Source: a virus. From it: 64,000 bases of DNA. The stretch is taken from IMG/VR virus record IMGVR_UViG_3300033571_011534, positions 11,732 through 75,731 of that record. The stretch is one strand, 5' to 3'. Position 1 is the stretch's first letter. The number at the start of each line of letters is the position of its first letter. A model generated the notes under the pieces. That model made no database searches, was not told the origin of the DNA, and was given only the letters and a program-made list of their open reading frames with translations. The translations under genes were made by a program, and so were the position numbers. Below, in pieces: positions 24,165 through 44,740 of the stretch.

Positions 24165-24347
24165 TCCGTTATCATTTTGTTATAATTAATACCCGCTGAA
24201 ATCTGAAAAAATTTTCAAATTGACAAAAATCTGAATATTTTTTAACTATGTACGATACACGATCTTGCAAAAAAAATAAAAAAGCATAGTGAGCACACAC
24301 GTACCCGTACGCCTTCTTACATTTTTTATGAGACTGGTGCCTGCTTT

Positions 24348-24563
24348 CTATTTTAGAATAGAAAGACTAGCTAATGCATCTTCTACATTGTCAAACATTG
24401 CAGTAAAAGCATCTAGTGATTTTTGCTTTCGCAATTCACCACACACTTTCAAATCGTGATTAGCTTTCCATTTTTTAGCATCTAGGTAGTAGCTCAAAAA
24501 AGTTTCTTGTTCGTATTCACAATTTGAGCAACGAGTCTTGCGATACATTGTTGTTTTAGTCAT
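24348..24563 (-). CDS. Hypothetical early protein (CxxC)
   Basis: AAAGGA RBS; in leftward mini-operon. Confidence 0.55.
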   Translation of the reverse strand: MTKTTMYRKTRCSNCEYEQETFLSYYLDAKKWKANHDLKVCGELRKQKSLDAFTAMFDNVEDALASLSILK

Positions 24564-24662
24564 TTAGTTATTTTCCTTTTCATTTAGAGAGATTGTTAGT
24601 TGAGTGATTGAAGAGATTGCGTTATCGAACTCTTCCCAAGTTTCGAATGTTAGGGTAATCAT

Positions 24663-24860
24663 TTATTCACCGTCCCAACAAGTGTTCCAGTCAGTTTCGC
24701 AAGGCTCCCAATACTGAAAGCTTGAGCAGAAAGCGCAACCTGCGAACTTATCGTGCTTGATACAGTAAGCCCTATCCTGGTATTCATCACAACAGCGGAA
24801 TAGGTCATCACCGCTTAGGGTGTAGTAGTAATCACTTACCTTGAACATTGTTTGAGTCAT
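24663..24860 (-). CDS. Hypothetical Cys-rich early protein
   Basis: AGAAAGGATA RBS; downstream of the minus-strand promoter at 24968-24991. Confidence 0.6.
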   Translation of the reverse strand: MTQTMFKVSDYYYTLSGDDLFRCCDEYQDRAYCIKHDKFAGCAFCSSFQYWEPCETDWNTCWDGE

Positions 24861-24886
24861 AATTATCCTTTCTAAACTCTAGGTTT

Positions 24887-24934
24887 TTATTTGCTAGGCT
24901 CATACCGCTAAGGGTCTTATTTGCTAGGCTCATA
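24887..24934. repeat. 18-bp direct repeat x2
   Basis: ttatttgctaggctcata at 24887 and 24917. Confidence 0.9.
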
Positions 24935-25057
24935 ACCTTTTTTTTCTTATTTATTTATCTTGCTTTTAGCCTAACACGAACCTACGACATTTATACCCCT
25001 TTTTCTAGCCTTTTTGATACAAACTTTAGACTAATTTTTTGTAGGGTATCTACAAAG

Positions 25058-25087
25058 TTATCCACAGGCATAGAATAGTTATCCACA
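25058..25087 (+). promoter_or_regulatory. Two perfect DnaA boxes
   Basis: TTATCCACA at 25058-25066 and 25079-25087. Confidence 0.7.
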
Positions 25088-25241
25088 GGTGCGCCGAGGC
25101 CCTATATCTAGTAGTACTAATTAAGTTACGATACTAGATCTAGATCTCCCAGAATTATAACAAAATGATAACAACAACGGCGTGTCGCTTGATAAATGTC
25201 GTAGGGTTGTGGTAGGTTGTTAGTAGTTAGAAAGGATAGAA

Positions 25242-25466
25242 ATGAATAACGAACTATTTGAGAAATTGGTATCACTAAAGACTGATACTCATACCGCTAG
25301 GTTTAGCGATGATGGCTCTGCCGTCAAACACGATGAAGAAAAATACCAAAAGGCTTTGGCTAGTCAAAACGACTTTACTGATGAAGAGATAACAGCGGAG
25401 AGTGTTCGCCGTTGGAACCTGATGATACAGAAAATGAACGAGGCATACCAAGCCAAAATGTCCTAG
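25242..25466 (+). CDS. Hypothetical early protein
   Basis: AGAAAGGATA RBS, promoter at 25195. Confidence 0.65.
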   Translation: MNNELFEKLVSLKTDTHTARFSDDGSAVKHDEEKYQKALASQNDFTDEEITAESVRRWNLMIQKMNEAYQAKMS

Positions 25467-25501
25467 GGTTATGCTAGGCTAATTTTAGAAAGAAGGAAAA
25501 A

Positions 25502-25681
25502 ATGGAAGAAAAAATCTGTGTATTTTGTATGAACCTAGTCAATGACTATGTATGCTTTGAGTGTGATGACTACAAGGGTCTAATGCCACTAAAGGAAGCT
25601 GAGAGCTATCTAGGTGAGGACTTCCCTGAAGAGTACCGCCAACCAATGGCTATCTATGGGCAGAGGCTCTACTGGCAATAA
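25502..25681 (+). CDS. Small CxxC..CxxC protein
   Basis: MEEKICVFC...CFEC; RBS and promoter at 25457. Confidence 0.55.
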   Translation: MEEKICVFCMNLVNDYVCFECDDYKGLMPLKEAESYLGEDFPEEYRQPMAIYGQRLYWQ

Positions 25682-25893
25682 ATGTCAGAGGGTCATGCTA
25701 GGTTATAAGTAATTAGAAAGGATAAAGATGTACTACAACAGAGAAGCCCACCAACTACTAGAGGACACCCTAAAGGTTCTTCAGGCTAAAAGAAAACACG
25801 CCTACCCATACATGGTTGGACTACTAATGCCAAATGTTCCTTTGACAGAGGCTAAGAGAATTGCTAAGATTGTAGAAGAAATGGAGAGTGAAA

Positions 25894-26070
25894 ATGACTG
25901 AGGAAGATTTCGATGATTGGCTAGATGATGTTTATCCAACTTATCAAATTGCGGGGGTAGAGTTGCGTCCCTCACAAATGCTAAAGAACTGCGACCCTAT
26001 CGCATACAGAATTGCGATGTCAGAATGTGAAGATAGAGAAGAGGAATGGAATGGCTACTTTGACAACTGA
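25894..26070 (+). CDS. Small acidic phage protein
   Basis: FDDWLDDVYP...PSQMLK..DPIAYR motif seen in phage early genes. Confidence 0.55.
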   Translation: MTEEDFDDWLDDVYPTYQIAGVELRPSQMLKNCDPIAYRIAMSECEDREEEWNGYFDN

Positions 26071-26722
26071 AGAACTAGAAACCCTAATTTTTCAAATTGA
26101 CCTAATGCTATCTGATGACAAAATGTCTGAGGGTGTTGGTAGTCTTTTTACAACAAGAGAGGATAACTAAATGATTTTTTATAACGGATTCAATCTAATG
26201 ATTGATTTGATTTTGGTTGCTGTTGTGTATGTTGTTGCTCACGGAATTGGATACCGCAAAGGCTTAGACAAAAACAAAACACCATTTTAGCAACACGCCA
26301 AAGCCAGGGCTTGACAATTCTGGTTTTTTGGGCCGAGGCGATCTGATCGGGCCCCAAATTTTGTTTACGAAGATGTTTACGAAATTCCCAAAAAATCTCC
26401 CAAAAATGTCAGAGGGTCAATGTATAATAAGGCTATGAAACTAGGAAAAGCTAATGAATCAAGACGCAAGGCGGAAAGTCAAGAACTATTCCGCAACTTA
26501 CTAAAAGCTCCTCACCTAGTTTCTACCCCTCAAAAATACAAGGGTAGCCGTCAGTCTAACAAGACTAACGCTATCAAGGAAAGTAGAGCAAGTGAGTAAT
26601 TATAACTGTTGGGACTGTAATAAACTAACTAGACACTTATTCGAATACAGAACAATAAATGTCTGTGCCTCATGCTATGCTATTAGAGTTGGACACCCCT
26701 CAGCAAGAAAGTTGGTAAAGTA

Positions 26723-26884
26723 ATGGGAAAGTATTCTGTTGGCTATGACGGTTTCGTTATCGTCAATGCTAAGAATGAGGAAGAGGCCTATAACAAGGCT
26801 AACAAGTATCTAAGCAAGACTAACCTTATCAATGATGGTGATGAGGGTGAATGGTATCTTACTGAAGCGGAAGAGATAAAGTAA
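26723..26884 (+). CDS. Small acidic protein, VEA.SEEEA-type family
   Basis: MGKYSV...IVNAKNEEEAY; coupled by TAATG overlaps. Confidence 0.5.
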   Translation: MGKYSVGYDGFVIVNAKNEEEAYNKANKYLSKTNLINDGDEGEWYLTEAEEIK

Positions 26885-27186
26885 TGGGAAGAATGACGGC
26901 CATGTCAATTGCAGAGACAGATGTATCACTAGAGCAACAACTAGCCTGGCACCTTCAAGGGAATCACTATCCACCAATTCCAAAAGCAATGGTTCAACCC
27001 TGCATAGACGCTATTGACGCTTATTGGGAAGAGGACTATGACAGACTAATCCAATTGCCAATTGATGGCTTAGACCGTAATGGAGAGCCATTCCAAATTA
27101 GATGGCGTGATGGCTCAGACAAGGCCCCTGCATGGGCATTAGTTGAACACGCTCACCTTGACAGTTGGCTGCCTGAAATAGAATAA
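26884..27186 (+). CDS. Conserved actinophage protein
   Basis: WHLQGNHYPP...CIDAI...APAWALVE.AHL..W. Confidence 0.65.
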   Translation: MGRMTAMSIAETDVSLEQQLAWHLQGNHYPPIPKAMVQPCIDAIDAYWEEDYDRLIQLPIDGLDRNGEPFQIRWRDGSDKAPAWALVEHAHLDSWLPEIE

Positions 27187-27230
27187 ATGTCAGACGTCGT
27201 CTGTATAATTGTCTAAGAAAGGATACCCCA

Positions 27231-27950
27231 ATGCCCCTAATACGTTCAAAAGATAGAAAGGTAACAAATGCTGTATCTCCGAATGGTAAGTCGCCCACTA
27301 TTGCTAACACCTTTGGGCTTCCGTCTGGTAAAGCGTTTTCCTGCCCTGGAGCGACTAGTGTATGCGAGAAAGTCTGCTACGCTGGCAAGCTTGAGAAAAT
27401 CTACAAGGGAGTAAAAGACGTTCTTCTAAACAATTGGGACCTGCTACGTAATGCAGACCAATTGGAGATGGAAGCGCTACTTTACCAAATGATAGATGAG
27501 TTTGATAAAGACTGTAACAAGCGCAATGCAGAAAAGCTGTTTCGAATTCACTGGGATGGAGACTTCTTCAATGAGACTTACACTCACGCTTGGAAGAATG
27601 TAATCAAGGCTTGGCCTAGCATTCAATTCTGGGTATACACTCGTTCAGACTTTTCGGTACCTATTCTTAGCGATGTTGACAACCTTAGCCTGTACTTCTC
27701 AACTGATGATGACAACTGGCAGCTGGCTAGTAAGTTGAAGCAAGAGACTGGCGTCAAGCTTGCATACCTTGCCAATAACTTTGCAATGGGTAAAGAGCGG
27801 ATGTTGTCTATAACACCTAAGTCTGCAATTCCTTGTCCTGAGAATGCTAAGAAACTTCCGCTAATCAGTGACAAGGGCTCCGCCTGCGTAACTTGCGGAC
27901 AGTGTGTGTTCGCTCGCAATGACATTTTATTTAGCGCTAGCAAAAAGTAA
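27231..27950 (+). CDS. GP88-family protein (radical-SAM-like Cys motif)
   Basis: CPGATSVCEKVCYA, FRIHWDGDFF, FWVYTRS, C-terminal CP..C..C..C. Confidence 0.7.
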   Translation: MPLIRSKDRKVTNAVSPNGKSPTIANTFGLPSGKAFSCPGATSVCEKVCYAGKLEKIYKGVKDVLLNNWDLLRNADQLEMEALLYQMIDEFDKDCNKRNAEKLFRIHWDGDFFNETYTHAWKNVIKAWPSIQFWVYTRSDFSVPILSDVDNLSLYFSTDDDNWQLASKLKQETGVKLAYLANNFAMGKERMLSITPKSAIPCPENAKKLPLISDKGSACVTCGQCVFARNDILFSASKK

Positions 27951-28248
27951 GGAGATGAGGTAAAATATACCATGGACGCATTTTATATCATAACTATTTT
28001 ACTTCTTATGTCTCTATTGCTAGTCTCTACTAATCGAAAATAGACTCATGCTATAGGGGCATGTAAACTGTAGGGATCTTCTTACATCCTTTCTTAGGTC
28101 CTTACCGTCCTGGCTACGACGTAAAACTGGCCACAATCTGGGCCGAGGGCTTTATAACAAAATAATAAAGATTTAAGATCCTTTACGACACGCTCCCAAA
28201 ATGTCGTAGGGTTGGTGTATAGTAATACTACCTAACAGAAAGTAGAGT

Positions 28249-28812
28249 ATGGGAACTAGAGGAATAACAGAAGTAATTTACAATGGCGAGACTGTAGTTA
28301 GCCAGTATGGTCAATGGGACCACTACCCAAGCGGTCAGGGTATCACAGCGTTCAAGTTTCTACGCAGCCAAGAAAACATCGACAACCTAAAGAAAAACCT
28401 TAGCCTAGTCTATGTTCCAAGTGATGAGGAATACAAGTCTATTGTTAGCAAGTATTCTGATGAGCGTGGAATGATGACTATGGAGCAAGGTGAAGAGTAT
28501 AGCAAGATGTATCCAAGTCTTACTAGAGATACTGGTGCTGGTATCCTTGAGGTAATTGCTAACGCTACCAATCCAGTTCCGTTGTTCCTGGACCTAGAGT
28601 TCAAAAACGACAGACTGTTTTGTGAGGGTGTCTACACAATCAACCTAGATGACAACACTTTCACAACTAGATACAATCGCTATGAAAATGAAAATGATGA
28701 AGATACTTTGACTTTATCTTTTGAGCAGATTCTTTACACAGGTGAAGATGACTATCTGGAAAAAGCAAAGTGTGGAGTCTATCAGTATCTCAAGGCTGAG
28801 GCTTTAGCCTAA
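28249..28812 (+). CDS. Conserved phage protein
   Basis: MGTRG...QYGQWD.YPSGQG...CE..Y.I.LD pattern. Confidence 0.6.
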   Translation: MGTRGITEVIYNGETVVSQYGQWDHYPSGQGITAFKFLRSQENIDNLKKNLSLVYVPSDEEYKSIVSKYSDERGMMTMEQGEEYSKMYPSLTRDTGAGILEVIANATNPVPLFLDLEFKNDRLFCEGVYTINLDDNTFTTRYNRYENENDEDTLTLSFEQILYTGEDDYLEKAKCGVYQYLKAEALA

Positions 28813-29035
28813 CAAAGATACCCTGCCAGCTTGACAAACTGGTGGGGATCTGGTCGGGCCCAAAACTAGTAATTTGTCAAGTTTACGATTATAACAATTT
28901 TTCCCCTGAATTGTTATAAAAAAAATAGGGCGTGGCTCTTGATAATGTCGGAGGTATGCCCTATAATTTAGGAGTAGCAAAAACGACTACTAAATAGAAA
29001 AATCCTAGTGGAAAGACTAGGTGAAAGGAAGCAAA

Positions 29036-29191
29036 ATGGCAAATGTAATTGCCCCCGTTGTTGGCTCACAATACACTACTCAGAAATCAGGTGTTTCTGG
29101 GATTGTTCAGGAAGTAGTGGCAAATAAGACTGGCACTTATCGTGTTCGTCTTGATGTAAATGGTCAGCCACGCTGGACAACTATCAAGTAA
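29036..29191 (+). CDS. Small beta-rich protein
   Basis: GAAAGGA RBS; YTTQKSGVSG.V.EVV...RVRL...RWTT. Confidence 0.55.
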   Translation: MANVIAPVVGSQYTTQKSGVSGIVQEVVANKTGTYRVRLDVNGQPRWTTIK

Positions 29192-29299
29192 TAAATTAGT
29201 TTGAGGGGGTAGAGTTATTTATCCTTTCGCTACCCCCTCTCCTAAAATGTCTTACCCTGCCCCTATAATGTAATTACCCCAAATAGAAAGTAGAAACAA

Positions 29300-29746
29300 A
29301 TGGCTAGAACCCTGTCCGTAAAAGTTCCAACAAGCAAACTAATCGCAGACATTGAGGCAAGTATTGCTAAGATTGACGCAGACATTGAGGCGTATGCTGG
29401 AAAGCGTAAGCAGTATGAAGCAGACATAAAGCAGTATGAGAAAGACCTTGTTGCTTTTGCGATTGACGCACTAAAGAACCCAGACAACATTGGAACAGAA
29501 CACAACGCACTAATTCGCATCACAACCAACAACTACCGCAACGCTGTATCTGTTGATTTTGATACTGAGGCACTTGGCTTTCCAAAGCGACCAGAAGAGC
29601 CAGCCAGACCAAATGAAAAAAGTTATTTTGGTAGGGACTACACCACACGCAAGGAAATCCTAGAGAAGAACCTTCGTATTCTCAAGATGACCTCGCAAGA
29701 GGAAGTATCAGCGAGTTCATACTCATCTGTTATTGACCTAATCTAA
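29300..29746 (+). CDS. Hypothetical coiled-coil protein
   Basis: AGAAAGTAG RBS, promoter at 29246. Confidence 0.65.
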   Translation: MARTLSVKVPTSKLIADIEASIAKIDADIEAYAGKRKQYEADIKQYEKDLVAFAIDALKNPDNIGTEHNALIRITTNNYRNAVSVDFDTEALGFPKRPEEPARPNEKSYFGRDYTTRKEILEKNLRILKMTSQEEVSASSYSSVIDLI

Positions 29747-30164
29747 TCTTATTCGCACAAATACTGTGTAGGCAACTACTCTAAAGCTGAAGCGAATAAT
29801 CACCTGAGCAAGTGGCTAAACTGCTCACTAGATTTGGTAAGGCAGATGCTATTTGCTGTTGCTGAATAGAAGTGAGTGCTAGCACAAAAACTTCGTTCCT
29901 TACCTCCAAAGATTGATCCTGCTAATTGTAATGGTACACTGGGCTTGGATCAATACCCCCTGTTGCAATCAATTTGATAGATGCCCAGTTCGAACGAAGC
30001 ATCTCGCAGGGGGATCTTCCCATTTTTGGGTCGGGCCGCCGTTACCAAATTGTTATTTACGAAGACTAATTATTTTTTCCTAGATTCTTGACAAATGTCA
30101 GAGGGTGGCTGTAAAATAGTCTCAACAAACAAATAACTAATAACCCTAATAGAAAGTAGATAAA

Positions 30165-31166
30165 ATGGCACACTTGCTAGAACAGTCCGCAACAGGCGAA
30201 ACCGCTTTTGCTTCTTTTCGTGAGCCTGCTTGGCACCAGCTAGGCACAGTTTTCAATGAAGAAGTCTCAACTAACAAGATGTTGAAACTCGCACACCTTG
30301 ACAACTGGAATGTTCGCTTGGAAGATGTAGCGATTCCAAATGGTTTTGAGAGTGACAAGAATTATTTCTTCGTGACTAGAACTAACCCATTCAACAAAGA
30401 GCAAAATGATGTCCTTGGCGTAGTTGGTGAAAGATACAATGTTCTTCAGAATGAAGACTTATTTGATTTCGGTGATGCCCTGCTAGATGGTGGTCGCTGG
30501 GAAACTGCTGGTTCAATCAAGAACGGAAGACAGGTTTTCGGTTCTCTTGCTCTTGAGCGTGAAACAGTTCTTGACCCTAACGGCGTGTCAGATGTTGTAA
30601 AGTCTTATTTGCTAATCAACACTAGCCACGACGGCTCAGTTGCTATTCAGGCAAGTATCACACCTGTTCGTGTTGTATGTGCTAACACTCTAAATCTTGC
30701 TCTTGGTAAAGGCAACAGAGGTGTCAAGCAAACTTTCAAGATTCGCCACACCGCAACAGCATCTGGCAAGGTTGCTCAAGCTAGAGAGGCTCTTGGTCTT
30801 GCTAATAAGTATCTTGATGAGTTTGATAAGCTTGCTCAGTCTATGATTGCTAAAGAAATTACTAAGGCTCAGTTTGACAAGATTGTTGAGCTTGCTTATC
30901 CAAAGCCTGACAAGGACACAAAGGGTGCTGTCAAGAAGTGGGAAAACAAAACAGACATTCTTCAGGGAATCTATGTTGGCTCAACTAACGGAATGATTGC
31001 TGGAACTGCTTGGGGTGCTTTCAACGCTCTAACAGAGAGACTAGACTGGTATCGCACTGCTAGAGGTGGTTCTAACGAATCTATTCTAGCTGCTGCTTCT
31101 GGTTTTGACCCTGTGACTACCGCAGAAAAGAACAGACTGCTTCAGCTGGTCTTGGCTAACGCCTAG
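30165..31166 (+). CDS. DUF932 / TIGR03299-type phage-plasmid protein
   Basis: REPAWH.LG, LG.VG..Y...QN, ETAGS...G, SHDGS, TPVRVVC.NTL, RHT, GTAWG..NA.TE..D. Confidence 0.85.
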   Translation: MAHLLEQSATGETAFASFREPAWHQLGTVFNEEVSTNKMLKLAHLDNWNVRLEDVAIPNGFESDKNYFFVTRTNPFNKEQNDVLGVVGERYNVLQNEDLFDFGDALLDGGRWETAGSIKNGRQVFGSLALERETVLDPNGVSDVVKSYLLINTSHDGSVAIQASITPVRVVCANTLNLALGKGNRGVKQTFKIRHTATASGKVAQAREALGLANKYLDEFDKLAQSMIAKEITKAQFDKIVELAYPKPDKDTKGAVKKWENKTDILQGIYVGSTNGMIAGTAWGAFNALTERLDWYRTARGGSNESILAAASGFDPVTTAEKNRLLQLVLANA

Positions 31167-31357
31167 CCAAAAGTCCTGAGCATGACTAAAAACTGCTCTC
31201 CATTCATTTGCCAGGATCTAAAATTTTGGGCCGAGGGCCTAAAATAAACTTAATTAATAAAAAATCTTAATTACGAACTATCAAAAAAATTCGCAGAAAT
31301 CTTGATAAATGTCGGAGGGTCATGTCATAATAGACCTACCCTAAAGAAAGTAGACAA

Positions 31358-31552
31358 ATGCCCAAATACTATGTGAAGATGCGTATTGACTTTGCTGGTG
31401 AGCTAGAAGCAGAATCAGCTGAGGCAGCCGAACAACTAGCTTGGACTAGTTGGGGAGACTCTATGGACAACGACATAACCTATGATGGTGTTTATGACAT
31501 TGACGTAGAAGAGATTGAAGATGATGAGGAAGATGAGGAAGAAGATGAATAA
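31358..31552 (+). CDS. Small acidic protein, VEA.SEEEA-type family
   Basis: ELEAESAEAAEQLA; acidic tail. Confidence 0.55.
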   Translation: MPKYYVKMRIDFAGELEAESAEAAEQLAWTSWGDSMDNDITYDGVYDIDVEEIEDDEEDEEEDE

Positions 31553-31687
31553 GCACTTCCGCTGCCAGACTACAATTTCTTTTGACCAGGTATCAGATGG
31601 ATACTATGCACAATGCCCTAGTTGCGATGAAGACCTATTTAGTTTTGAGGTCGTATAATGTCAGAGGGTAGTGTTATAGTATCTACT

Positions 31688-31924
31688 ATGAAAGTATGCC
31701 CCAATCATTCAGGTAGTTTTGACTGTACCCCCTTTTGTCGTATCTGTGAGGGAAACCAGGAGTACGAGTCAAACGGCTACCTACCATGTAACAGATTCGG
31801 CCACTGTGGAGAATACATTGAGGAGGACATCTGGCATGAGGAGCTAGGCTTCTGTGTTGAATGTTCTCACTTATACTGGGACCAAGAGCTAGACCCATTT
31901 ACACTAGAGAGGATAGAGCAGTGA
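31688..31924 (+). CDS. Cys-rich hypothetical protein
   Basis: Leaderless start after TATAGT; CP.H...DC.PFC..C. Confidence 0.55.
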   Translation: MKVCPNHSGSFDCTPFCRICEGNQEYESNGYLPCNRFGHCGEYIEEDIWHEELGFCVECSHLYWDQELDPFTLERIEQ

Positions 31925-32053
31925 AAGAGTGGACCACCTTTATAAATAAATCTAATAAGAATGAGTTTGAGACTCTGCTAGCAGACATAATGTCAGAGGC
32001 TCTTGCTAAACTAGATACTGTCCCTGATGAAGAACTAGAAAGGCTAATTGACT

Positions 32054-32209
32054 GTGAGTAAAACTTGGCAAGTAGAATACAACGCTACCTATTGGGTAGA
32101 AGCAGAAACAGAAGACGAGGCTATTGAGTTGGCTATTGAATCACACGCTGACCTACCTAACGGAGACTGGGAAGCACACATTGAGCAGAAGTGGGAGACG
32201 AAAGCATAA
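32054..32209 (+). CDS. Small acidic protein, VEA.SEEEA-type family
   Basis: GTG start; WVEAETEDEAIELA. Confidence 0.5.
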   Translation: MSKTWQVEYNATYWVEAETEDEAIELAIESHADLPNGDWEAHIEQKWETKA

Positions 32210-32366
32210 TGGCTACCAGCGAAATGGAAAAGATTGGATACGAGAATGGTATTAGATTTGCTATTCATTCCATAGAAAAATCTCTAGACAATCCAGCACT
32301 AAACATCTTGACACCAAAGCAGAGTCTTGGTATCCTATTAGCATCACTAAGAATGGAGATTCAGTA

Positions 32367-32564
32367 ATGTCCTATGTATTAGAACAAACAAGCTATGTTT
32401 CAGAAGACGGAAACTTTGGAACAGGCTACCTACTAACATTCCCCTACAATGCGCTGACTGAAGAGCAGTGGGAAGTATTGGACATGCTAAACGATAGCTC
32501 TAAGATGGAGTATGCCCACGCTATCCTAAATGGACAGGCTGACCTATCGGAGTGGGAAGGCTAA
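32367..32564 (+). CDS. Hypothetical acidic protein
   Basis: TAATG coupling on both sides. Confidence 0.5.
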   Translation: MSYVLEQTSYVSEDGNFGTGYLLTFPYNALTEEQWEVLDMLNDSSKMEYAHAILNGQADLSEWEG

Positions 32565-32836
32565 TGGCCAAAGAGGTCTGGAGTGTGTCTGTCTACAAAG
32601 AAGGCATAATCGAAATAGACACTGATGAAATGACTATCGAACAGGCGGTAGAGGATTGGGTCTATGACCTGGAAGTTGACTACGACCTAATTGAAAGAGT
32701 GGAAGGCTAGTCCTTCCATTTTTTCGGTCGGGGCTGATCTTTAAATAAAATACTTATAAATAAAAAACCTTTAAGATCTCATTATTTTTTTTCCCAGATC
32801 CTTGATAATGTCAGTGGGTAGCAGTATACTATAGTC

Positions 32837-33223
32837 ATGAAAGTAAAGTTGATTGATCCAGAAAAAGCTAAAAACGTATTGGGACTAGACAAGGAAGAGC
32901 ACTGGGTTGCCCCTTCTGTTGTTGTCAACACCCCCAAAGGCCTAGCCGTAGTTTGCTATGAAGGTGTAGGCTGGTTCGAAAACGAGGGCAAGTACAAGAT
33001 CCTTGTTGGAGATGAATGGAATGATTGGGTAAAAGAAATCACTAAGGATGAACTTATTAGTATTATTTCTAATAAGGAAACTACCCTTCATCAGTTAATT
33101 GATCCGCACAATGATAGGACTAGATCTAATCTATCGATCTGGGAGAATCAGATTAAGAATACCCCGCAAAATGTCGTAGGGTTAGGTTATAATGAGGAAA
33201 AGAAAGAGGTGGCAAATGCCTGA
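32837..33223 (+). CDS. Hypothetical protein (possibly recently acquired)
   Basis: Leaderless after the 32807 promoter; contains GATC/TTAA unlike neighbours. Confidence 0.5.
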   Translation: MKVKLIDPEKAKNVLGLDKEEHWVAPSVVVNTPKGLAVVCYEGVGWFENEGKYKILVGDEWNDWVKEITKDELISIISNKETTLHQLIDPHNDRTRSNLSIWENQIKNTPQNVVGLGYNEEKKEVANA

Positions 33224-33395
33224 ATACAAAGTTCAAAGAGAGTACACCAACTGGGAAGAAATTACAGTTGAGGCAGATTCGGAAGAGCAAGCTTTAGAGA
33301 TTGCAGAGGACGACGAAGACTTATGGAACTATGCAATTGATGCTAGTTCATATAATTACACAGGTGAGACCTGGGTAGGAGAAGCAGATGCCTAA
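33216..33395 (+). CDS. Small acidic protein, VEA.SEEEA-type family
   Basis: MPEYKV...TVEADSEEQALEIA; GAGGTGG RBS. Confidence 0.55.
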   Translation: MPEYKVQREYTNWEEITVEADSEEQALEIAEDDEDLWNYAIDASSYNYTGETWVGEADA

Positions 33396-33558
33396 GCACA
33401 TGCATTACTTTAGCTATGGAGCCTGCATTCATTGCGGTAAGGCAGTCAACAAAGGCCTTGGCGTAGACCTGTACAAGGGAAAAAGGGTTTAAGAACCCTC
33501 TTGACAAAATCCCAGAATCCTGAGATAATAGTTTTACCCTAGAGAAAGTATAACCCCA

Positions 33559-33963
33559 ATGGAGAACACAAAAGTAGAAGCGCCCTACACAGAGTACCAA
33601 GGTTGGAACGAATGGGCAGATAAATACAAGCCTATCAAGAATCACTTACGCAATGACCCAGACGAAACCATGTTCGAGACCTATGGCGAAGAGGTTGAGT
33701 TTGTATCTAACTATGACAACAAGTATGTCTGGACCTATTTGCAAGGAGACATGTCTGACCTTATTTGTGCAGGCTATCACTATGTAAATAGATTAGGATA
33801 CTACATCTCTGAGGTACCGTGGACGAACGAGGATGACTATGTCCTGCTATCAGTAGAAGTAGAATGCAAATGCTACGACGAAGATGCATACGACGATGGT
33901 GGTTTTGGAAATCCAGAATGCCAAGAATGTGAAGGGTATGGCTATGTCACAAATTATGTATAG
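33559..33963 (+). CDS. Conserved phage protein
   Basis: YKPIKNH...FETYGEE...VWT...G.H.VNRLGYYI. Confidence 0.65.
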   Translation: MENTKVEAPYTEYQGWNEWADKYKPIKNHLRNDPDETMFETYGEEVEFVSNYDNKYVWTYLQGDMSDLICAGYHYVNRLGYYISEVPWTNEDDYVLLSVEVECKCYDEDAYDDGGFGNPECQECEGYGYVTNYV

Positions 33964-34315
33964 GAATAAGAACAGAGACAAGACCAAGGTCGTCTATGAC
34001 CTAAACATCTTTAAACGTGAGCTATTAAACGACGAAGGTGAATACGAGCACATGGGCCCCTGGTACATTCATATCTATGAATACGACGGTGGCAATATCG
34101 AAGAGGTAGGCGATCCGATTGAGTTGACGTCTGCTGAAGCTGATAGTCTTATTAATAATGACCCATACTTTCAAAACCATGAGCCAGACCTATGGTACGG
34201 CCTGGAGGGATTCATGTTTGAAAAGTGGGATGCATTGCCAGACAGGCTTAAGGCTGTATTTGAATGGTTACCCAAGTACAAGGAAGACATGGGGTATGGC
34301 CTTGTCAATGATTAA
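33944..34315 (+). CDS. Hypothetical protein
   Basis: Long ORF, start uncertain. Confidence 0.5.
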   Translation: MSQIMYRNKNRDKTKVVYDLNIFKRELLNDEGEYEHMGPWYIHIYEYDGGNIEEVGDPIELTSAEADSLINNDPYFQNHEPDLWYGLEGFMFEKWDALPDRLKAVFEWLPKYKEDMGYGLVND

Positions 34316-34472
34316 ACTAAGATTGATGCGTTGAGCCAAGCTCCGCATCATATGGATACGACAGTTAGGGGTAGCTAGCGTATCCAGGGGGTGTCAGGAC
34401 TTTTCCTACTTTCAGTCTTGACACCCCAACCAATTTGTGGGATAATGGGCACAGGAGAATAACCAATTGACA

Positions 34473-34667
34473 ATGAGTGATGAAGAAAAGGTCGCAGTAA
34501 AAATTACTGGACTTCTTTCTGACCATAGGCTAAACTTAGACAGGGTTGGCTTGTATGTGGCAAGAGAAGAACCAAGTAGCAATTACAGACGACTAATGAT
34601 TGTGGCAGAAGCCGCTGATGAGGAATGGGAGAGCAGGTATGGCAGACACGACAGCAACAAGCTATGA
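34473..34667 (+). CDS. Hypothetical protein
   Basis: AGGAG RBS; TTGACA-17-GATAAT upstream. Confidence 0.55.
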   Translation: MSDEEKVAVKITGLLSDHRLNLDRVGLYVAREEPSSNYRRLMIVAEAADEEWESRYGRHDSNKL

Positions 34668-34929
34668 GGCAAAGTGTGAAATCCTTGCTGATGTTTGGAT
34701 AGAGTATAGAGATGAAGAAGCCTTTCAGGAACTGATGGAGTTTGCTGACTTAGGCTTTCCACTTGCGTATGCTGTTCAGGGCGGTATCATAGAGAGCAAC
34801 GAACGAGTAGAAGAATTAGTAGAGGGAACTTTCACCTTGCTACTTCAGTTGCTCAAAGTTGATGACACTGGCTTTGACAGTATCACCCAGCTCTTTGACA
34901 AATCCGAAGAAGCAAATAAATCAAAATAA
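34639..34929 (+). CDS. Hypothetical protein, paralog of 39252..39527
   Basis: ILAD.W...RD...F....DLG.P.AY...TF.LLL...V.DTGF shared. Confidence 0.65.
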   Translation: MADTTATSYEAKCEILADVWIEYRDEEAFQELMEFADLGFPLAYAVQGGIIESNERVEELVEGTFTLLLQLLKVDDTGFDSITQLFDKSEEANKSK

Positions 34930-35177
34930 TTTTTGACCCAGCTTGACATTCGATCAAGACTGTGGTCGGGGTATGTTATCAAAATGTTATCAAACCACTA
35001 TTGACAAAACCTTTACGATGGACTATAATATTTCCCTGAAATTTGATCGAGGTCTATCCAAACCTCAAACCTTATATTGTTTAACATATTACGATCATCT
35101 GTAAAAAATCGCTGAAATATTTTACATATAGGTTTGGGTATTTTTGGCAATCTTATCAAACATGATATACTTATGCC

Positions 35178-35375
35178 ATGAGTCCAAGACATTTCTATAG
35201 AGCATACTATCCAGAAGAAGCCAAGAAGATGGATCAAGCATATGCTGAAGCTGGTGTTATTATTGTAGATACTGTTACTAGAGCATTTAAGAGGTTTGTT
35301 ATTCCTTTCTTTGTACCTGGCCTCAGGGAGACTAATAATACTGACAAAGATAATGCCAAGGGCATCAAAGAATAA
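35178..35375 (+). CDS. Hypothetical protein
   Basis: Leaderless after TGATATACT. Confidence 0.45.
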   Translation: MSPRHFYRAYYPEEAKKMDQAYAEAGVIIVDTVTRAFKRFVIPFFVPGLRETNNTDKDNAKGIKE

Positions 35376-35837
35376 CCCCATTCCCCCCTATATAAATAAC
35401 ATTACGAAGAACATAAAAAAATCGCTGAAATCTTTTTCTTTTGGCCAGATTTCATTTAAAATGGTTTAGTTTTTGATATTTTTATGGCCATATTTTATAT
35501 AAAAAATGCTTGACATTTGACGGATATTATGGTATAAAGGTTTGGCGTTTAAGGGGTGTAAGGGTTTGGGGTTTGGTAAATGATTACGAGTTTAAGTTAA
35601 TATGTGCTCCATTATCCACTATCCTCCATATCACTCCACTTTAACTCTATTAAACTTAATAAACAGTAAGATCTTTTATCCAAAACATGGTCTCTAAACA
35701 TGCTCTAAATAGCCACAGAATCGATTTTGAGGGGGGTATACAAACCTTCGTATCTTGGATGTGGGGCTATGGGGATATCTGGATATCAGGCTTATTTCTC
35801 TATAGTGTTATTGGTTATATAGGGGATGGTGGTTTGA

Positions 35838-36419
35838 TTATTTGATACCGTCGGAGTTTAGGCTATCCCTAATCTTATGAGCTTCATCAAAGATAGGATC
35901 GTCCTGGAGATATCTCATGTGCGAATAGTCTAGGTCTTCATCTATAAACCTAAAGAAAGCCATGGTTATAAACTCTCCCTCTTTGAAGGTCTTATGTGGT
36001 CTCCAATGAGGATACTCATTTGGGTTAAATATGATAGCTTCGTTGTCTTCCATCTCAAAGACTTCCTTGTCTACCGCCAGACCCCATGTCGTATTGGACT
36101 TGTATTGGTAGTCAATAATTAATCCATTATTGTCCCCATCAAAGTGTGGTGGGAGATTTGGCTGTCCATATTTTGCATCATAGTCGACAAACATAACTCC
36201 TATTTGTGGAAGCTTCCTGCCAACAAGTTTTTCGACTCTCTCTTGAATACCCTCTAAAGTGGGCATCGGCAGTCTTGCCACATACATGAGTCTTCCAAGG
36301 ACTGGGTCGTGTTTCTTTTCTGATCTATACATCCACTCATCCTCATCAGTAAGGATGTGCTCGATTACTTCTAGCTCTTCTGGGAGGAGAAAGTTTTTGA
36401 CCCTGTACACATTGTCCAT
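35838..36419 (-). CDS. Divergent 2OG-Fe(II) oxygenase-like protein
   Basis: LPPHFD ... HWR facial-triad candidates. Confidence 0.55.
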   Translation of the reverse strand: MDNVYRVKNFLLPEELEVIEHILTDEDEWMYRSEKKHDPVLGRLMYVARLPMPTLEGIQERVEKLVGRKLPQIGVMFVDYDAKYGQPNLPPHFDGDNNGLIIDYQYKSNTTWGLAVDKEVFEMEDNEAIIFNPNEYPHWRPHKTFKEGEFITMAFFRFIDEDLDYSHMRYLQDDPIFDEAHKIRDSLNSDGIK

Positions 36420-36451
36420 ATGTTAAATTATACCATTTCTGGACAAGCTCA

Positions 36452-36781
36452 TTAAATATCGTCGTCGACTGTATTGTTTAGCTCTATAGGCTTAAGTAGA
36501 TCCATAGCATGCTTGTACTGGATTGCCTTGTTACCCTGCCCCATGTTAATGGCAGACTCAAACATCATGTTCAGGACATATTGGATACGAACCTGCTCTG
36601 CTTCGATACCAGACTGATACCCATTGCTATACCCTAGCTCATAGTTATAGTCAGCCTCAGAGCTATTCTCAGATTCAGATTCTTCATATCCAATATCGTA
36701 GCCAAGCTCATATCCGTGCTCTTGTCCAGCGTCAAAGATTTCTTTTTCTTCGTCTGTTAGCTCATCGTAGTTCACTGCCAA
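36452..36781 (-). CDS. Acidic protein with GYxxGY repeats
   Basis: GYELGYDIGY, GYSNGYQSG. Confidence 0.55.
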   Translation of the reverse strand: MAVNYDELTDEEKEIFDAGQEHGYELGYDIGYEESESENSSEADYNYELGYSNGYQSGIEAEQVRIQYVLNMMFESAINMGQGNKAIQYKHAMDLLKPIELNNTVDDDI

Positions 36782-36992
36782 CCTCCAAGGTTTCCTTTAG
36801 GTGTGAAAAGATTGTCTCCTGGTAAATGGGTGTCCTTGTCCTACGAGACTGTTCCTCTAGTTTGTTTATTTCATTAAGAACCCTAAGCCTCTCATCCAAC
36901 CTTGCCTTTTCAACAAAGTCATTGATAGCCTTAACATCTGACTTAGAGGTGCTTGGGTCTAGCACCAACATTCCATGCTCGTACTTAATCAT
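36762..36992 (-). CDS. Hypothetical protein
   Basis: In overlapping operon chain. Confidence 0.5.
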   Translation of the reverse strand: MIKYEHGMLVLDPSTSKSDVKAINDFVEKARLDERLRVLNEINKLEEQSRRTRTPIYQETIFSHLKETLEVGSELR

Positions 36993-37242
36993 TACGCCAA
37001 ATCTCCACTCCTACGAAAAGGTTAAGAATCTCAAAACTAATGGACCTGTCATAGAAGTTGATTGCAGCTGCGATACCCCAGTGATCTGTCCTGCCAGCAT
37101 AGAAGCCTATCGTATCGAAAAGGACTATGCTACGACTAAATCCAAAGGTATTGCTATCAATCCTAATCCACTTACGCCTACCTGCCTTTTGCAGGTCTTT
37201 GTCTGTATAACCCTCTGCGTGAAGGCTTGCCATCTTAGCCAT
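36985..37242 (-). CDS. Hypothetical protein
   Basis: GGAG RBS; operon chain. Confidence 0.5.
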   Translation of the reverse strand: MAKMASLHAEGYTDKDLQKAGRRKWIRIDSNTFGFSRSIVLFDTIGFYAGRTDHWGIAAAINFYDRSISFEILNLFVGVEIWRND

Positions 37243-37444
37243 TAGATTGCTCCCAGTCTCCCTTGTATGTGTAGTTCACTCCTAGCTTAGGTAGGTAAAC
37301 ACAAATCTCGTCAGGCTCCAAATACCTTGTGTGCTTGTCAGATGTAATATGAAACATCCAGGTGCCTTCTGCTACCTCTGTCTCTACATCCATGTCGCTC
37401 ATTAGATTAATAAACGTGTCACGCTTAGCTGTTACGAACATCAT
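37235..37444 (-). CDS. Hypothetical protein
   Basis: Downstream of a TTGACA..TAAAAT promoter. Confidence 0.5.
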   Translation of the reverse strand: MMFVTAKRDTFINLMSDMDVETEVAEGTWMFHITSDKHTRYLEPDEICVYLPKLGVNYTYKGDWEQSNG

Positions 37445-37595
37445 ACCCTTTGCTCTCAGTAGTACTATTTTATAGTATTACGAAGACATTGTCAATACCC
37501 CAGGATGCTAGAGGCTATTGCTATGTAATAGCATACTAATCTCTATAATCCGCCGAACTTTTTGCCGCCGAACTTAATGCTATAATGTATAAGAT

Positions 37596-37784
37596 ATGAC
37601 AAGACCACAACATGAATTCGAAGAGCTCGAATCCGCAGTAACCCTTACAGTTTATACAAAGTCTCCAAACAAGTGGCTACTGATCGACAGGGAGACTGGT
37701 GTTGCCTACCAAGGCTCTGAACATGGACGATGGGATAAGCTTATTCCCAAGATTAAAGAGTCCTCTGAAAAACCAGGCATATAA
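37596..37784 (+). CDS. Hypothetical protein
   Basis: TKSP.KW.LID.ETG..Y.G motif; TGCTATAAT just upstream. Confidence 0.6.
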   Translation: MTRPQHEFEELESAVTLTVYTKSPNKWLLIDRETGVAYQGSEHGRWDKLIPKIKESSEKPGI

Positions 37785-38070
37785 TAGTTTTATGATTTCT
37801 GGTACCTGTAACTCTTGTGGAAAGATAGCCACTGAGCCTGTACGACTTCCTCCAAAAGGAATCGTCCCTAGGACTCCACAGAAATGTTACGATTGCTCAA
37901 AAAAGAACTAATCTTTATTTAGCACTTCATTATCAAGCTCTATTTGCAGAAACCTTATATCCATCTCAAGAGTCTCAATAGCTTCTGCGTTCATCATAAG
38001 ACCCATCTCGATAGCGTCTAAGGCCTTTTTAATGCTGGACAACTCTTTGGCGAAGTCTTCCATTCTGATA

Positions 38071-38433
38071 CTAAATATCTTCTTTTTCTAGCCAGGCTAC
38101 TAGCTCTGGATTGTCACGCAAGAACATTAGCATTGCATTTTCGTAAACACCAATAAAGAAATGCTCCCACTCCTCAAAGTCTGCCTCTGGCTTTGGGAGG
38201 CCGTTCTCAAAGACCATCCTCATTGCATGTAGGATTTCGTGCAGTAGCGTTACCTGCTGCTTGCTACGACTAAGGGCACTGGAAACGACAATAAGGTTTC
38301 CAAGATCAAGAGTGTACCCATTTGTACCATCATTAAGCATGCCGTCATCTTTTGGGTCACGGAACACAATATTAAAAACTTGGCTTCCAACCTTTACCTT
38401 TTCTGGATAAGCCTCTACCTTAGTCGACTTCAT
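38071..38433 (-). CDS. Zincin-like metallopeptidase domain protein
   Basis: TLLHEILHA (HExxH) with downstream E. Confidence 0.65.
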   Translation of the reverse strand: MKSTKVEAYPEKVKVGSQVFNIVFRDPKDDGMLNDGTNGYTLDLGNLIVVSSALSRSKQQVTLLHEILHAMRMVFENGLPKPEADFEEWEHFFIGVYENAMLMFLRDNPELVAWLEKEDI

Positions 38434-38617
38434 TCTTAGATCTCCTCAACCTCAGATATTTCTCTAATGCTGATGGCACGTTGAACTCCTGCAATATACC
38501 CATCTTGCCAGGCAGTTAGGGCTGACTCTGTTGTGTCTCTCCCAACGCTTGCCATCCATTTTTGCATGTCTAGCGGAGCAAACTTAACTATTTCAGATTC
38601 GATGTCCAACTGGTCTC

Positions 38618-39112
38618 CTATGATATTAGTGGTTCTTTGTTTACGTGTGTTACCCAGAAGTAACTACAAGTGCTGCAGCATGGTTTGTTGTCCTTGCTGA
38701 CAGTGGCAATCTTAAAGGAATAGTAATACTCTGGATCCTTCTTGTAAAGATTAGCTTTATGCGTAGTTATGATTCTATCACTAAACTCTGGGTTTTGCAA
38801 CCACTCTGGAAACTGGCTTCCCCACAGGAACTTCTTTGAAGACCTAAGATTTGCTAGATTTTCCTCATTCTTATCTGTCTTGATACCACGCTTTTTTGCC
38901 TCCTGGACCATGGCTTTTGCATAGGTAAACAGGACGTGCTCTGAGCCTCGCCACATCTTGACAGCTGGATGATTGCGCCAGCCAGCTTTTGGATCATCGC
39001 TTGAAAGGACCTTTAGTATTTGATAAGTTTCTAGTATTTGCTTGTTTAGTCTTTTTGAGTCTAGCGTCTGCGCTATATCTTTAAAGTTTTTTGATGTAAG
39101 GAAAGTCTGCAA
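38618..39112 (-). CDS. MSMEG_6728-like / pyrimidine-dimer DNA glycosylase family protein
   Basis: MQTFL...LD.KRL.KQ..E..QI...W.NHPAV.MW...H..NL..KD..YY. Confidence 0.75.
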   Translation of the reverse strand: MQTFLTSKNFKDIAQTLDSKRLNKQILETYQILKVLSSDDPKAGWRNHPAVKMWRGSEHVLFTYAKAMVQEAKKRGIKTDKNEENLANLRSSKKFLWGSQFPEWLQNPEFSDRIITTHKANLYKKDPEYYYSFKIATVSKDNKPCCSTCSYFWVTHVNKEPLIS

Positions 39113-39211
39113 TGTTGCCTTCTTCTGTAGAGAGTTTTCTTATGTACCCATTATAGCTTATAACCAAATGCCTGTCAAGAATATCTTATTAAATAAACTA
39201 ATTACTCATTA

Positions 39212-39240
39212 TTGACAAAAAGGATTATCTTTGATATAAT
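39212..39240 (+). promoter_or_regulatory. SigA-type promoter
   Basis: TTGACA-17-TATAAT with extended TG. Confidence 0.8.
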
Positions 39241-39251
39241 TATGTAGAGGA

Positions 39252-39527
39252 GTGCTATTGTCAGAAACACCTTTTAACACTAAAACAGAGATACTGGCAG
39301 ATTTATGGATGAACCATAGAGATGCCGATATTTTTATAGACTTTGTCGAATACAACGATCTTGGCTTGCCTATAGCTTATCTGGCAGCCAACGAAGTAAT
39401 AGAAGTAAACAAGGTGATCGCTGGCTTTATTGAAGAAACGTTTACCCTTTTGCTAGCTCTACTAGAGGTTGAAGATACAGGGTTTAGTTCTTTGTCTGAT
39501 TTAATTTCTCCAGACATCTATGATTAA
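39252..39527 (+). CDS. Hypothetical protein, paralog of 34639..34929
   Basis: Shared motifs. Confidence 0.65.
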   Translation: MLLSETPFNTKTEILADLWMNHRDADIFIDFVEYNDLGLPIAYLAANEVIEVNKVIAGFIEETFTLLLALLEVEDTGFSSLSDLISPDIYD

Positions 39528-39631
39528 TCGCTATTGTTTGGTATAATTGTTATACCCCAGCTGGCTTGGGAACGGGAAATGAATGGGCCAGCTGGGGCTA
39601 TATTTATAACAACAACTAGGAGAATCCCCCA

Positions 39632-39853
39632 ATGACAACCGTATACGTAAAGCCATCTTGTGTCCAGTGCGATGCAACAAAAAGACTTATGGATCGATTA
39701 GGCGTTCAATATGACACCGTAGACATCACAAAAGACCCAGATGCACTAGAAAAGATTTTAAGCATGGGATTCAAATCTGCACCAGTTGTTATCACAGACA
39801 ACGATGCCTGGTCTGGCTTTAATCCAGACAAGGTGGGGCAGCTAGCGGCATAG
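39632..39853 (+). CDS. nrdH: Glutaredoxin-like NrdH
   Basis: CVQC active site, APVV, WSGF.PD. Confidence 0.9.
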   Translation: MTTVYVKPSCVQCDATKRLMDRLGVQYDTVDITKDPDALEKILSMGFKSAPVVITDNDAWSGFNPDKVGQLAA

Positions 39854-39879
39854 TTGCCCCAGTCGTGTATAATATAACC

Positions 39880-40548
39880 ATGAGGCACGAACTACAAAAC
39901 CTGACTAAACAGAATTTTATTGATTTTGGATACTCGGTAGAAGAAATAGATACCGAAATATTTTTAATTAAAGACTTTTTGACAGATGAAGAAGCTAAAG
40001 CGTTTTTAGATATAGCAAACTCTGCTAGTGAGGATGAATGGTCTGTTTCTTATATAGAGGGGCTAAAGTCTTTCGCTAGAGCAAAGTTTGGATACGACGA
40101 CTTAGATGAACTGGTTGCCAGCGGCAAGCTTGAGATTACCGATAGATGGAGAGACAAGAACCTTACTTTACACGACAAGAGTCTTCTTGACCCAATAAAC
40201 GAAAGACTTTCAAGGGTTATAAAGCATATTCCTGAGCTTTTGTATAATGGTATCGATGCTATACAGAGGCAGTATGAAGGCGCAGATCTTGTGGTCCATG
40301 TTGATAATCAAACAGACCCCTCCCTTGTTTATGCCGCAATTATCTATCTAAATGACGACTATACAGATGGTGAGCTTATATTTCCAGAGCGTGGCATTGA
40401 AGTAAAGCCACCAGCAAAGACTTTGGCGATATTCCCCACTCACGAAGAATATCTTCATGGAACTAACGCTCCTGGGCCTGGTCCCGTAAGGTATGTCTTG
40501 CCCTCGTTTATTGGCGTAAAAGGCTTTTACGAGAACAATAAATACTAA
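39880..40548 (+). CDS. 2OG-Fe(II) oxygenase
   Basis: HVD, YLNDDYTDGEL, HG..RY; paralog of 2439..3098. Confidence 0.88.
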   Translation: MRHELQNLTKQNFIDFGYSVEEIDTEIFLIKDFLTDEEAKAFLDIANSASEDEWSVSYIEGLKSFARAKFGYDDLDELVASGKLEITDRWRDKNLTLHDKSLLDPINERLSRVIKHIPELLYNGIDAIQRQYEGADLVVHVDNQTDPSLVYAAIIYLNDDYTDGELIFPERGIEVKPPAKTLAIFPTHEEYLHGTNAPGPGPVRYVLPSFIGVKGFYENNKY

Positions 40549-40569
40549 AGCATGTTAAAATAGATTATT

Positions 40570-43258: not shown

Positions 43259-43303
43259 GGCGTCCTGACTGGCAATAAGAATATCATGATACAATTATAC
43301 AGT

Positions 43304-43585
43304 ATGACAAGCTCTGCTAAGCAAAGAAAGCAACTACATGCCACACTGGAGGAGTTGCACCTCCACAAAGAAAAGCACGGCTGCGCTGACTGCAGAAATC
43401 ATTACCCCCATTACGTATTAGAATTTGACCATAGGCCAGGAGAGACGAAGATAGACGTTGTCTATAGGGTTCTGCGCTCTTATGGACCAGCGGCTGCATG
43501 GGCAGAAGTAAGGAAGTGTGACGTAGTTTGCGCTAACTGTCACAAAATAAGGACATATGAAAGAGAGCAAGAAAGTGAGTCTTGA
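43304..43585 (+). CDS. HNH-like zinc-binding endonuclease
   Basis: CADC...FDH...C.VVCANCH..RT. Confidence 0.7.
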   Translation: MTSSAKQRKQLHATLEELHLHKEKHGCADCRNHYPHYVLEFDHRPGETKIDVVYRVLRSYGPAAAWAEVRKCDVVCANCHKIRTYEREQESES

Positions 43586-44725: not shown

Positions 44726-44740
44726 AGATTTATTATACCA

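Follow-up and report, generated by a model that had tools for sequence, protein, structure and literature searches.

Genome-wide avoidance of restriction sites in phages is said to have been described by Sharp in 1986 and by Rusinov et al. in 2018. In phage T5 the absence of sites is a matter of region: the first-step-transfer (pre-early) DNA, a 10.2 kb terminal repeat annotated as the first part to enter the cell, is without EcoRI sites, and the gain of an EcoRI site there makes T5 restriction-sensitive (PMC12455610). The restriction resistance of T5-like phages has been tied to site number and to the sealing of sticky ends in the BASEL study (PMC8594841). For Murciavirus (Autographiviridae, T7-like), experiments showed that Type I motifs count only where they lie in the part of the genome that is injected first (Martinez-Cazorla et al. 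2025, PMC12455610). The leading regions of conjugative plasmids, the first of their DNA to enter, carry early anti-defence genes and are reportedly poor in restriction targets (cited in PMC12455610). The DNA described here (the window) is a stretch of 64,000 nucleotides corresponding to bases 11732-75731 of a 75.7 kb virus contig from IMG/VR (IMGVR_UViG_3300033571_011534; CheckV completeness 67%). A block of small genes at 24.3-34.9 kb of this window, best explained as an early module of the host-takeover type, is depleted of about ten four-base palindromes, one of which, GATC, is enriched in the spacers between the transcription units of the block.

A sequence-only reading of the window had noted that GATC and TTAA are missing from the coding blocks of ~24.3 to 32.7 kb, and the counts bear this out: each word is found there 0 times, and every position listed for them in the spacers proved exact. 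The stretches 33559-33940 and 34473-34929 are likewise free of both words, as had been stated. ATAT, the depletion of which had not featured in that reading, belongs with them. All three words are absent from the coding sequence of 24348-32710 (6216-6286 nt in the gene models), while the spacers of this region (2251 nt) contain 14 GATC, 7 TTAA and 3 ATAT. A codon-aware test was applied in which synonymous codons were permuted among the region's own genes, so that proteins and codon usage were unchanged (2000 shuffles). Expected numbers were 17.1 ± 3.4 for GATC, 25.7 ± 3.5 for TTAA and 21.9 ± 3.9 for ATAT, and the observed zero was reached for these words in 0 of 2000 shuffles. Further palindromes are scarce in the early coding sequence (observed versus expected: ACGT 4 vs 17, GTAC 6 vs 22, TCGA 6 vs 20, TATA 10 vs 27, CGCG 0 vs 8, AGCT 26 vs 40), TGCA is likewise depleted, and CTAG is not (50 vs 42). 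Across the 256 tetramers the mean z is -3.15 for palindromic words and +0.11 for non-palindromic ones, and expectations from Markov models agree with the depletion found by codon shuffling.

The strongest signal is that of ATAT, whose gap from 27985 to 33350 is the largest of any tetramer genome-wide, at 34 times the mean spacing. Among the sixteen A/T-only tetramers, density in the early block relative to elsewhere falls to 0.05 for ATAT and 0.09 for TTAA; TAAT, ATAA, TTAT and TAAA show no depletion, and TATA and ATTA are partly depleted. A general avoidance of A/T-rich words or TpA steps (through silencer binding or spurious promoters) was rejected, as only ATAT, TTAA and, in part, TATA and ATTA are reduced. 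Codon usage in the block (coding sequence of 24300-32720) also differs from that elsewhere: CTA makes up 43% of Leu codons versus 28%, TTA 7% versus 16%, and CAC 87% of His codons versus 57%. This shift lies in the direction that removes the avoided words, and CTAA, GCTA, ACTA and CTAG are over-represented.

When the codon-aware test was carried over 17 consecutive gene blocks, the effect was found only at 24.3-32.7 kb, with a partial effect at 32.7-34.9 kb; outside 24.3-34.9 kb, GATC, TTAA and ATAT are at or near expectation. CCGG, CGCG, CGATCG and CTCGAG, on the other hand, are at zero in the whole 75.7 kb contig. Avoidance therefore has two tiers, a few words being banned contig-wide and about ten more only in the early block. 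Genome-wide site avoidance, as a class, describes CCGG, CGCG, CGATCG and CTCGAG but not GATC, TTAA or ATAT. The contig resembles other phages with such avoidance in those four words, as do its sister lineages in GATC, AGCT and GCGC; it differs from them in the second, local tier, of which the remaining ~90% of the genome shows nothing. Neither a loss of significance after codon or Markov correction nor a genome-wide extent, the two outcomes that the sequence-only reading had named as speaking against itself, was found. Further along the window, AATT is rare at 35040-39200 (2 in coding sequence vs 17.9 expected), GTAC at 39200-44730 (4 vs 14.4 expected) and TCGA at 49800-55303 (2 vs 9.9 expected).

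The local dip recurs in relatives, where a repeat of the observation had been proposed. Around the gene for a DUF932 protein, which lies within the block, the density of ATAT, TTAA, GATC and TATA falls over about 10 kb (25 loci, each flanked by 10 kb to either side), and in three complete relatives (110-117 kb) the early module is the only palindrome-poor zone, with an index of 0.53-0.69 compared to mostly 0.8-1.3 elsewhere. CCGG and CGCG are nearly or fully absent from every relative examined. Among the genomes designated G000-G004 (this phage and four complete relatives), GCGC is at zero genome-wide in G001, G003 and G004, and in 15 of the 81 lineages of the wider set (numbered with the prefix L) GATC, and mostly AGCT, are absent genome-wide. 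These 15 GATC-free lineages keep the same promoters and spacer motifs. In nearly all lineages the early block is poor in TTAA and ATAT, and none of those sampled lacks either genome-wide. Whole genomes of sister lineages have been cleared of GATC, AGCT or GCGC, so these words are real targets in the phage family, which supports the sequence-only reading in this respect. Sets of avoided words that vary by lineage would be the expected mark of varying host restriction repertoires; to our knowledge, no agent other than restriction leaves such a lineage-specific palindrome signature.

The GATC sites of the block (14 of 14) all fall in the seven gaps that separate its transcription units; together the gaps account for 15.7% of the block, and none of them is without a GATC. 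The gaps likewise hold all TTAA (7 of 7) and all ATAT (3 of 3), at densities below background. The clustering in spacers that had been claimed for both GATC and TTAA thus holds for the first (6.2 per kb in spacers vs 3.1 per kb in the rest of the window) and fails for the second (3.1 vs 6.5 per kb). The spacer GATC sites sit in the roughly 100 nt from the end of one unit to the next promoter, whereas the GATC-free domain starts at the promoter and takes in the 5' leader and the coding sequence. In a comparison across relatives anchored on the promoter motif, the transcribed 300 nt held 12 GATC (326 expected) and the 120 nt upstream held 119 (127 expected); for TTAA the numbers were 67 (810 expected) and 153 (368 expected). 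AGCT, GTAC, TGCA, CATG and TCGA are depleted about equally upstream and downstream of promoters, and the spacers are therefore not generally spared from the purge, GATC excepted.

This comparison was refined by restricting it to GATC-carrying lineages and to windows resembling true spacers, with a dinucleotide Euler shuffle. GATC then numbered 93 upstream (34.3 ± 5.4 expected) and 6 downstream (63.5 expected), and it is the most enriched of the 256 tetramers upstream of early promoters, above the words of conserved motifs (TTACGA). In a non-redundant set of 72 dissimilar windows, from which similar ones were removed and the present window was left out, GATC was found 63 times upstream (24.2 ± 4.6 expected; rank 1 of 256) and twice downstream (22.6 expected; rank 251). 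The contrast between unit and spacer is about one third as strong for TTAA. The 200 nt preceding the DUF932 start, part of which belongs to gap 5 (Table 1), hold at least one GATC in 25 of 25 aligned relatives, with positions and sequence context that vary among them, and a search for an extended motif around spacer GATC found none.

The reading favoured here, with moderate confidence, is that host restriction selects on DNA that is expressed before the phage can protect itself, as with T5 first-step-transfer DNA, and that for GATC this selection acts on whole transcription units. The host polymerase would transcribe the early block while no phage countermeasure is yet in place; as this transcription would be needed at that point, the block would be under much stronger selection than the remaining genome against short palindromes cut by host type II enzymes. 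Most palindromes would be purged over the whole block, and GATC and, more weakly, TTAA only from the transcription units; the selected property for GATC would be the integrity of each unit and not that of the DNA molecule. As GATC is found only in the gaps, a complete digest by a GATC cutter would release each promoter-gene-terminator cassette intact, and the earlier suggestion that cuts are tolerated on this account fits the anatomy. The reading requires that cuts between units do no harm or can be repaired, plausibly so where a second repeat copy of the block exists. This reading is supported by a depletion that is local and palindrome-specific, survives codon-aware shuffles and recurs in the same module of relatives, and the idea of restriction pressure on early DNA stands to that extent. 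What we only infer from this pattern is that restriction is the selecting agent, that this DNA enters first and that a genome once cut survives or is repaired.

First entry, the other part of that idea, has a single line of support, namely the gene order that the block has in common with the terminal repeat of Streptomyces phage Jay2Jay (NC_029098; L083), a member of the BE cluster, whose phages carry the homologous module in a long direct terminal repeat. Jay2Jay gp5 (DUF932) and gp10 (GP88-like) have 55% and 50% identity, respectively, to the present proteins and lie among small genes, in the same order and orientation, within an 11.4 kb direct terminal repeat; Jay2Jay is also collinear with a complete relative of this phage in its portal, protease, capsid, tail, helicase and primase genes. 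In its early-module genes and its collinear structural and replication genes the phage matches the genome architecture of Stanwilliamsviridae. By analogy, the early block may represent a terminal repeat of ~11 kb in collapsed form, so that either genome end would bring it in first. The two phages differ in GC content (49% in Jay2Jay vs 41% here). The Jay2Jay repeat has a GC content of 55% versus 48% and carries Lsr2-like and ParB-like nuclease-domain genes beside the DUF932 and GP88 homologues. Contig ends were rejected as a guide to genome ends: six relatives stop 4.4-4.85 kb downstream of DUF932, and these ends are non-homologous and fall in a variable region. An apparent direct terminal repeat in G004 was rejected as only an assembly overlap of 123 nt.

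Like the T5 repeat, the block spans ~10 kb in which small early genes have strong promoters of the host type, and both are without restriction sites that are found elsewhere in their own genomes. The T5 repeat contains 0 EcoRI, EcoRV, HindIII, BamHI, PstI and SalI sites and shows a mild dip of some four-base palindromes. GATC, TTAA and ATAT are at expectation in it, unlike in the present block, where the purge is far deeper and broader (transcribed GATC at 0.04 and TTAA at 0.08 of expectation; ~ten tetramers). The block has no homology with T5 pre-early genes, and no enrichment of sites between units is reported for T5, unlike that of GATC here; for the present block, first entry is proposed by analogy. 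The likeness to Murciavirus is that site selection would act on only part of the genome, the first-entering or first-expressed DNA, although in that phage one bipartite Type I motif was examined by experiment, whereas here many four-base palindromes and a contrast between unit and spacer are read from sequence. Plasmid leading regions differ from phage DNA in that they enter single-stranded by conjugation; the DUF932 family is also found on mobile elements.

Several points weigh against the restriction reading. The 14 remaining GATC sites leave the block unprotected from a GATC cutter, so that the model works only if cutting between units does no harm or can be mended. Nor is the 2.6-2.7-fold enrichment of GATC in spacers explained by simple tolerance. 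For ATAT, the most depleted word, we know of no type II enzyme. Pfam and PHROGs searches of the block gave no recognised anti-restriction family, most open reading frames (ORFs) being without any family, and because no anti-restriction gene was recognised, a protective function of the block is something we infer. G004 assembles as a circle through its 123 nt overlap, which fits a collapsed repeat or headful packaging, and with headful packaging the first-entering part of the reading would be void. Jay2Jay itself shows no repeat-specific palindrome dip, GATC being absent everywhere (0 in positions 1-60000 vs 192 expected by Markov model).

Earlier reports of region-limited avoidance concern single sites (EcoRI in T5; one Type I motif in a T7-like phage), whereas here about ten words and a whole family are involved. 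The two-tier ban is shown by an entire uncultured actinobacterial phage family (447 viral contigs matching the DUF932 protein). As far as could be found, there is no earlier description of a purge this broad and deep, of two tiers of avoidance throughout a large family of uncultured phages, or of GATC that is enriched where units meet and absent inside them. Such a pattern would offer a sequence-only way to find the first-expressed DNA of uncultured phages, and the word sets of early modules may reveal host restriction specificities, among them perhaps one for ATAT. That GATC behaves in the inverse way would point either to genes laid out so as to tolerate fragmentation or to an actinobacterial regulator that reads GATC.

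A regulator of this kind is the main rival explanation, a possible but unlikely one. Spacer GATC would be a working signal for a reader of bare GATC (a Dam-type methylase switch, or a GATC-binding or nicking protein) that controls early promoters or unit boundaries, and transcription units would exclude the word since the same factor would interfere there. The clustering of GATC in regulatory DNA, its first place among tetramers upstream of early promoters ahead of the TTACGA-motif words, its conserved presence with shifting position and flanks, and the want of an extended consensus around the sites all speak for such a signal. It is harder to reconcile with 15 of the 81 lineages, in which promoters and spacer motifs are the same and GATC is missing altogether. 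The remaining genes are at normal GATC density, so interference would have to be confined to early times, and the parallel loss of about ten other palindromes is left unexplained. PF02086, PF01555 and PF05869 are absent from G000-G004, other methyltransferase families not having been searched. In the Lake Biwa methylome, seven freshwater actinobacterial draft genomes showed no methylated motifs and no methyltransferases (PMC6329791), which would be a caveat if the present phage came from such a host and habitat.

Rather improbable is an early module that is built to be cut. GATC would be actively kept at every unit boundary and shut out of the units, a host GATC-specific restriction enzyme would dissect the first-entering, probably duplicated and hence expendable, repeat copy into expressible cassettes, takeover and anti-defence genes would be expressed from these fragments, and the sequence would be recovered from the second copy; the resulting DNA ends might feed early promoters of the DNA-damage type (PafBC-like). 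The suggestion in the sequence-only reading that spacer GATC serves to trigger a damage response is weakened, because the same 15 lineages keep these promoters without any GATC.

Inheritance of cassettes, an RNA-level agent and a codon artefact are less likely. In the first, which is doubtful, early cassettes would recombine among lineages of which some purge words genome-wide, and the GATC at their borders would be scars left where cassettes were exchanged, or cut and re-ligated. The block is indeed mosaic in gene content among close relatives, lineages free of GATC and AGCT exist, and GATC is located at cassette borders. TTAA and ATAT, however, are missing genome-wide from no sampled lineage and yet are depleted early in nearly all; the spacers of GATC-free lineages hold no GATC and cannot be the source of the spacer sites; and homology breakpoints versus L003 fall mostly away from GATC. 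Selection at the RNA level, by an early-active host or phage endoribonuclease that cuts GAUC and UUAA and leaves untranscribed or read-through DNA free, has little to recommend it. It would account for a GATC-free domain that runs from the promoter through leader and coding sequence, with GATC back only ~100 nt before the next promoter, and for the same, weaker contrast in TTAA. The depleted set, though, follows DNA palindromy, with TAAT, ATAA and TTAT spared; most palindromes are equally depleted in spacers; and at least one spacer GATC, that at 30013, is part of a terminator-like hairpin loop and is probably transcribed. We know of no RNase with GAUC or UUAA specificity. An artefact of composition or codon usage in short, acidic, highly expressed genes is refuted, for although usage in the block does differ, shuffles that preserve it predict 17-26 occurrences of each word against none observed, Markov models agree and non-palindromic tetramers show no overall shift.

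A nucleotide search of the phage collection gave no near-identical phage record. The DUF932 protein has its nearest cultured relatives in Streptomyces BE-cluster phages (Stanwilliamsviridae; 55% identity), with more homologues in phages of Mycobacterium, Microbacterium, Arthrobacter and Gordonia. The complete relatives measure 110-117 kb, and the phage is predicted to be kin of the BE-cluster phages with a genome of roughly 110-117 kb. A WhiB-family gene is carried by this contig and the four complete relatives and, among control genomes, matched Corynebacterium only. Given the DUF932 homologues in phages of Actinobacteria and the WhiB-family gene, the host is very likely an actinobacterium. 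A full-length catalase-peroxidase (KatG-type) gene was rejected as a clue to the host, as its cellular matches (54-59% identity) are scattered over many phyla. Among sequencing runs compared as Logan contigs, one metagenome with no label contains the stretch, runs labelled freshwater or lake share 0.06-0.20 of its words, and no habitat is assigned. Terminase typing by PF03237 and PF17289 gave no match, and the literature on DUF932 function yielded nothing useful.

The region 24.3-32.7 kb comprises two leftward and about twenty rightward small ORFs in seven transcription units (Table 1). Its spacers repeat one layout: a hairpin, a GC motif, the TTACGA motif, the promoter and the leader. Early promoters have the form TTGAYA ... 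TGTC[AG]G.G-N8-TAnnnT, and the leader ends in AGAAAGTAGA. The GC motif is of the type GGYCGGG; in each early spacer the hairpin is followed by a short version of it (GGGCCGAGG, GGTCGGGCC), which may face either way. Lineage variants in relatives are TCGGCA, TCGGGGCA and TCGGCGCA, the last of which accounts for an enrichment of GCGC in the spacers of GATC-free lineages. The outer part of the block has promoters of a canonical type and not of the TGTC type.

Table 1. Coordinates (window positions) of the early block, its transcription units and gaps, and other features mentioned in the text
Feature	Position	Strand	Content
Core palindrome-poor early block	24262..32836		GATC, TTAA, ATAT = 0 within all transcription units
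Leftward unit	24348..24860	-	Cys-rich small ORFs 24348-24563, 24663-24860; TGTC-type promoter ~24989; three words absent
Gap 1, between divergent promoters	25016..25184		GATC 25137, 25143; TTAA 25121; ATAT 25104
Unit 1	25185..26170	+	promoter with TGTC box 25197; small ORFs 25242-26170
Gap 2	26171..26394		GGGCCGAGGC-GATC-T-GATC-GGGCCCC; GATC 26340, 26345
Unit 2	26395..27950	+	promoter 26407; small ORFs; GP88-family gene 27231-27950 (PF17338, Jay2Jay gp10 homologue)
Gap 3	27951..28189		GATC 28075, 28177; TTAA 28173; ATAT 27965, 27985
Unit 3	28190..28812	+	promoter 28202; ORF 28249-28812
Gap 4	28813..28938		hairpin, then GATC 28847
Unit 4	28939..29746	+	promoter 28946; ORFs 29021-29191, 29300-29746
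Gap 5	29747..30087		GATC 29915, 29948, 30013
Unit 5	30088..31166	+	promoter 30096; DUF932 gene 30165-31166 (PF06067, Jay2Jay gp5 homologue)
Gap 6	31167..31301		GATC 31215; TTAA 31250, 31254, 31267
Unit 6	31302..32710	+	promoter; eight small ORFs, mostly acidic, 31358-32710
Gap 7	32711..32801		GATC 32736, 32775, 32797; TTAA 32741, 32771
Rule-breaking ORF	32837..33223	+	5 GATC, 2 TTAA
Outer block part	33396..34929	+	canonical TTGACA-17-GATAAT promoters; depletion only partial
Spacer GC motif examples	25088-25100, 26325-26356, 28850-28862, 30028-30040, 31228-31240, 32725-32735		
WhiB-family gene	49947-50237	-	
Catalase-peroxidase (KatG-type) gene	57141-59336	-	full-length

Two ORFs, 32837-33223 and 33944-34315, break the rule, as had been seen from the sequence, where both were taken for recent arrivals. 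For ORF 32837-33223 this fits: its 11 distant homologues hold 0.29 GATC per kb while the present copy holds 5 GATC, no nucleotide match was found in the three closest relatives (L003-L005), and a recent replacement is plausible. ORF 33944-34315 belongs to the outer block part; 23 relatives conserve it, their homologues are equally undepleted, and it is a standing exception and no newcomer.

Five small, very acidic proteins are encoded at 26723-26884, 31358-31552, 32048-32209, 32552-32710 and 33192-33395. None matched any known family. They have a loose pattern in common (an N-terminal Y.V strand, then E-A/T-x-S/T-x-E-E/Q-A) and may be paralogues; that they act by DNA mimicry is only a guess. 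In unit 2, the promoter at 26407 (TGTCAGAG-N8-TATAAT; window 26407-26430) has its -10 box inside ORF 26420-26599, and the start of this ORF has therefore probably been miscalled.

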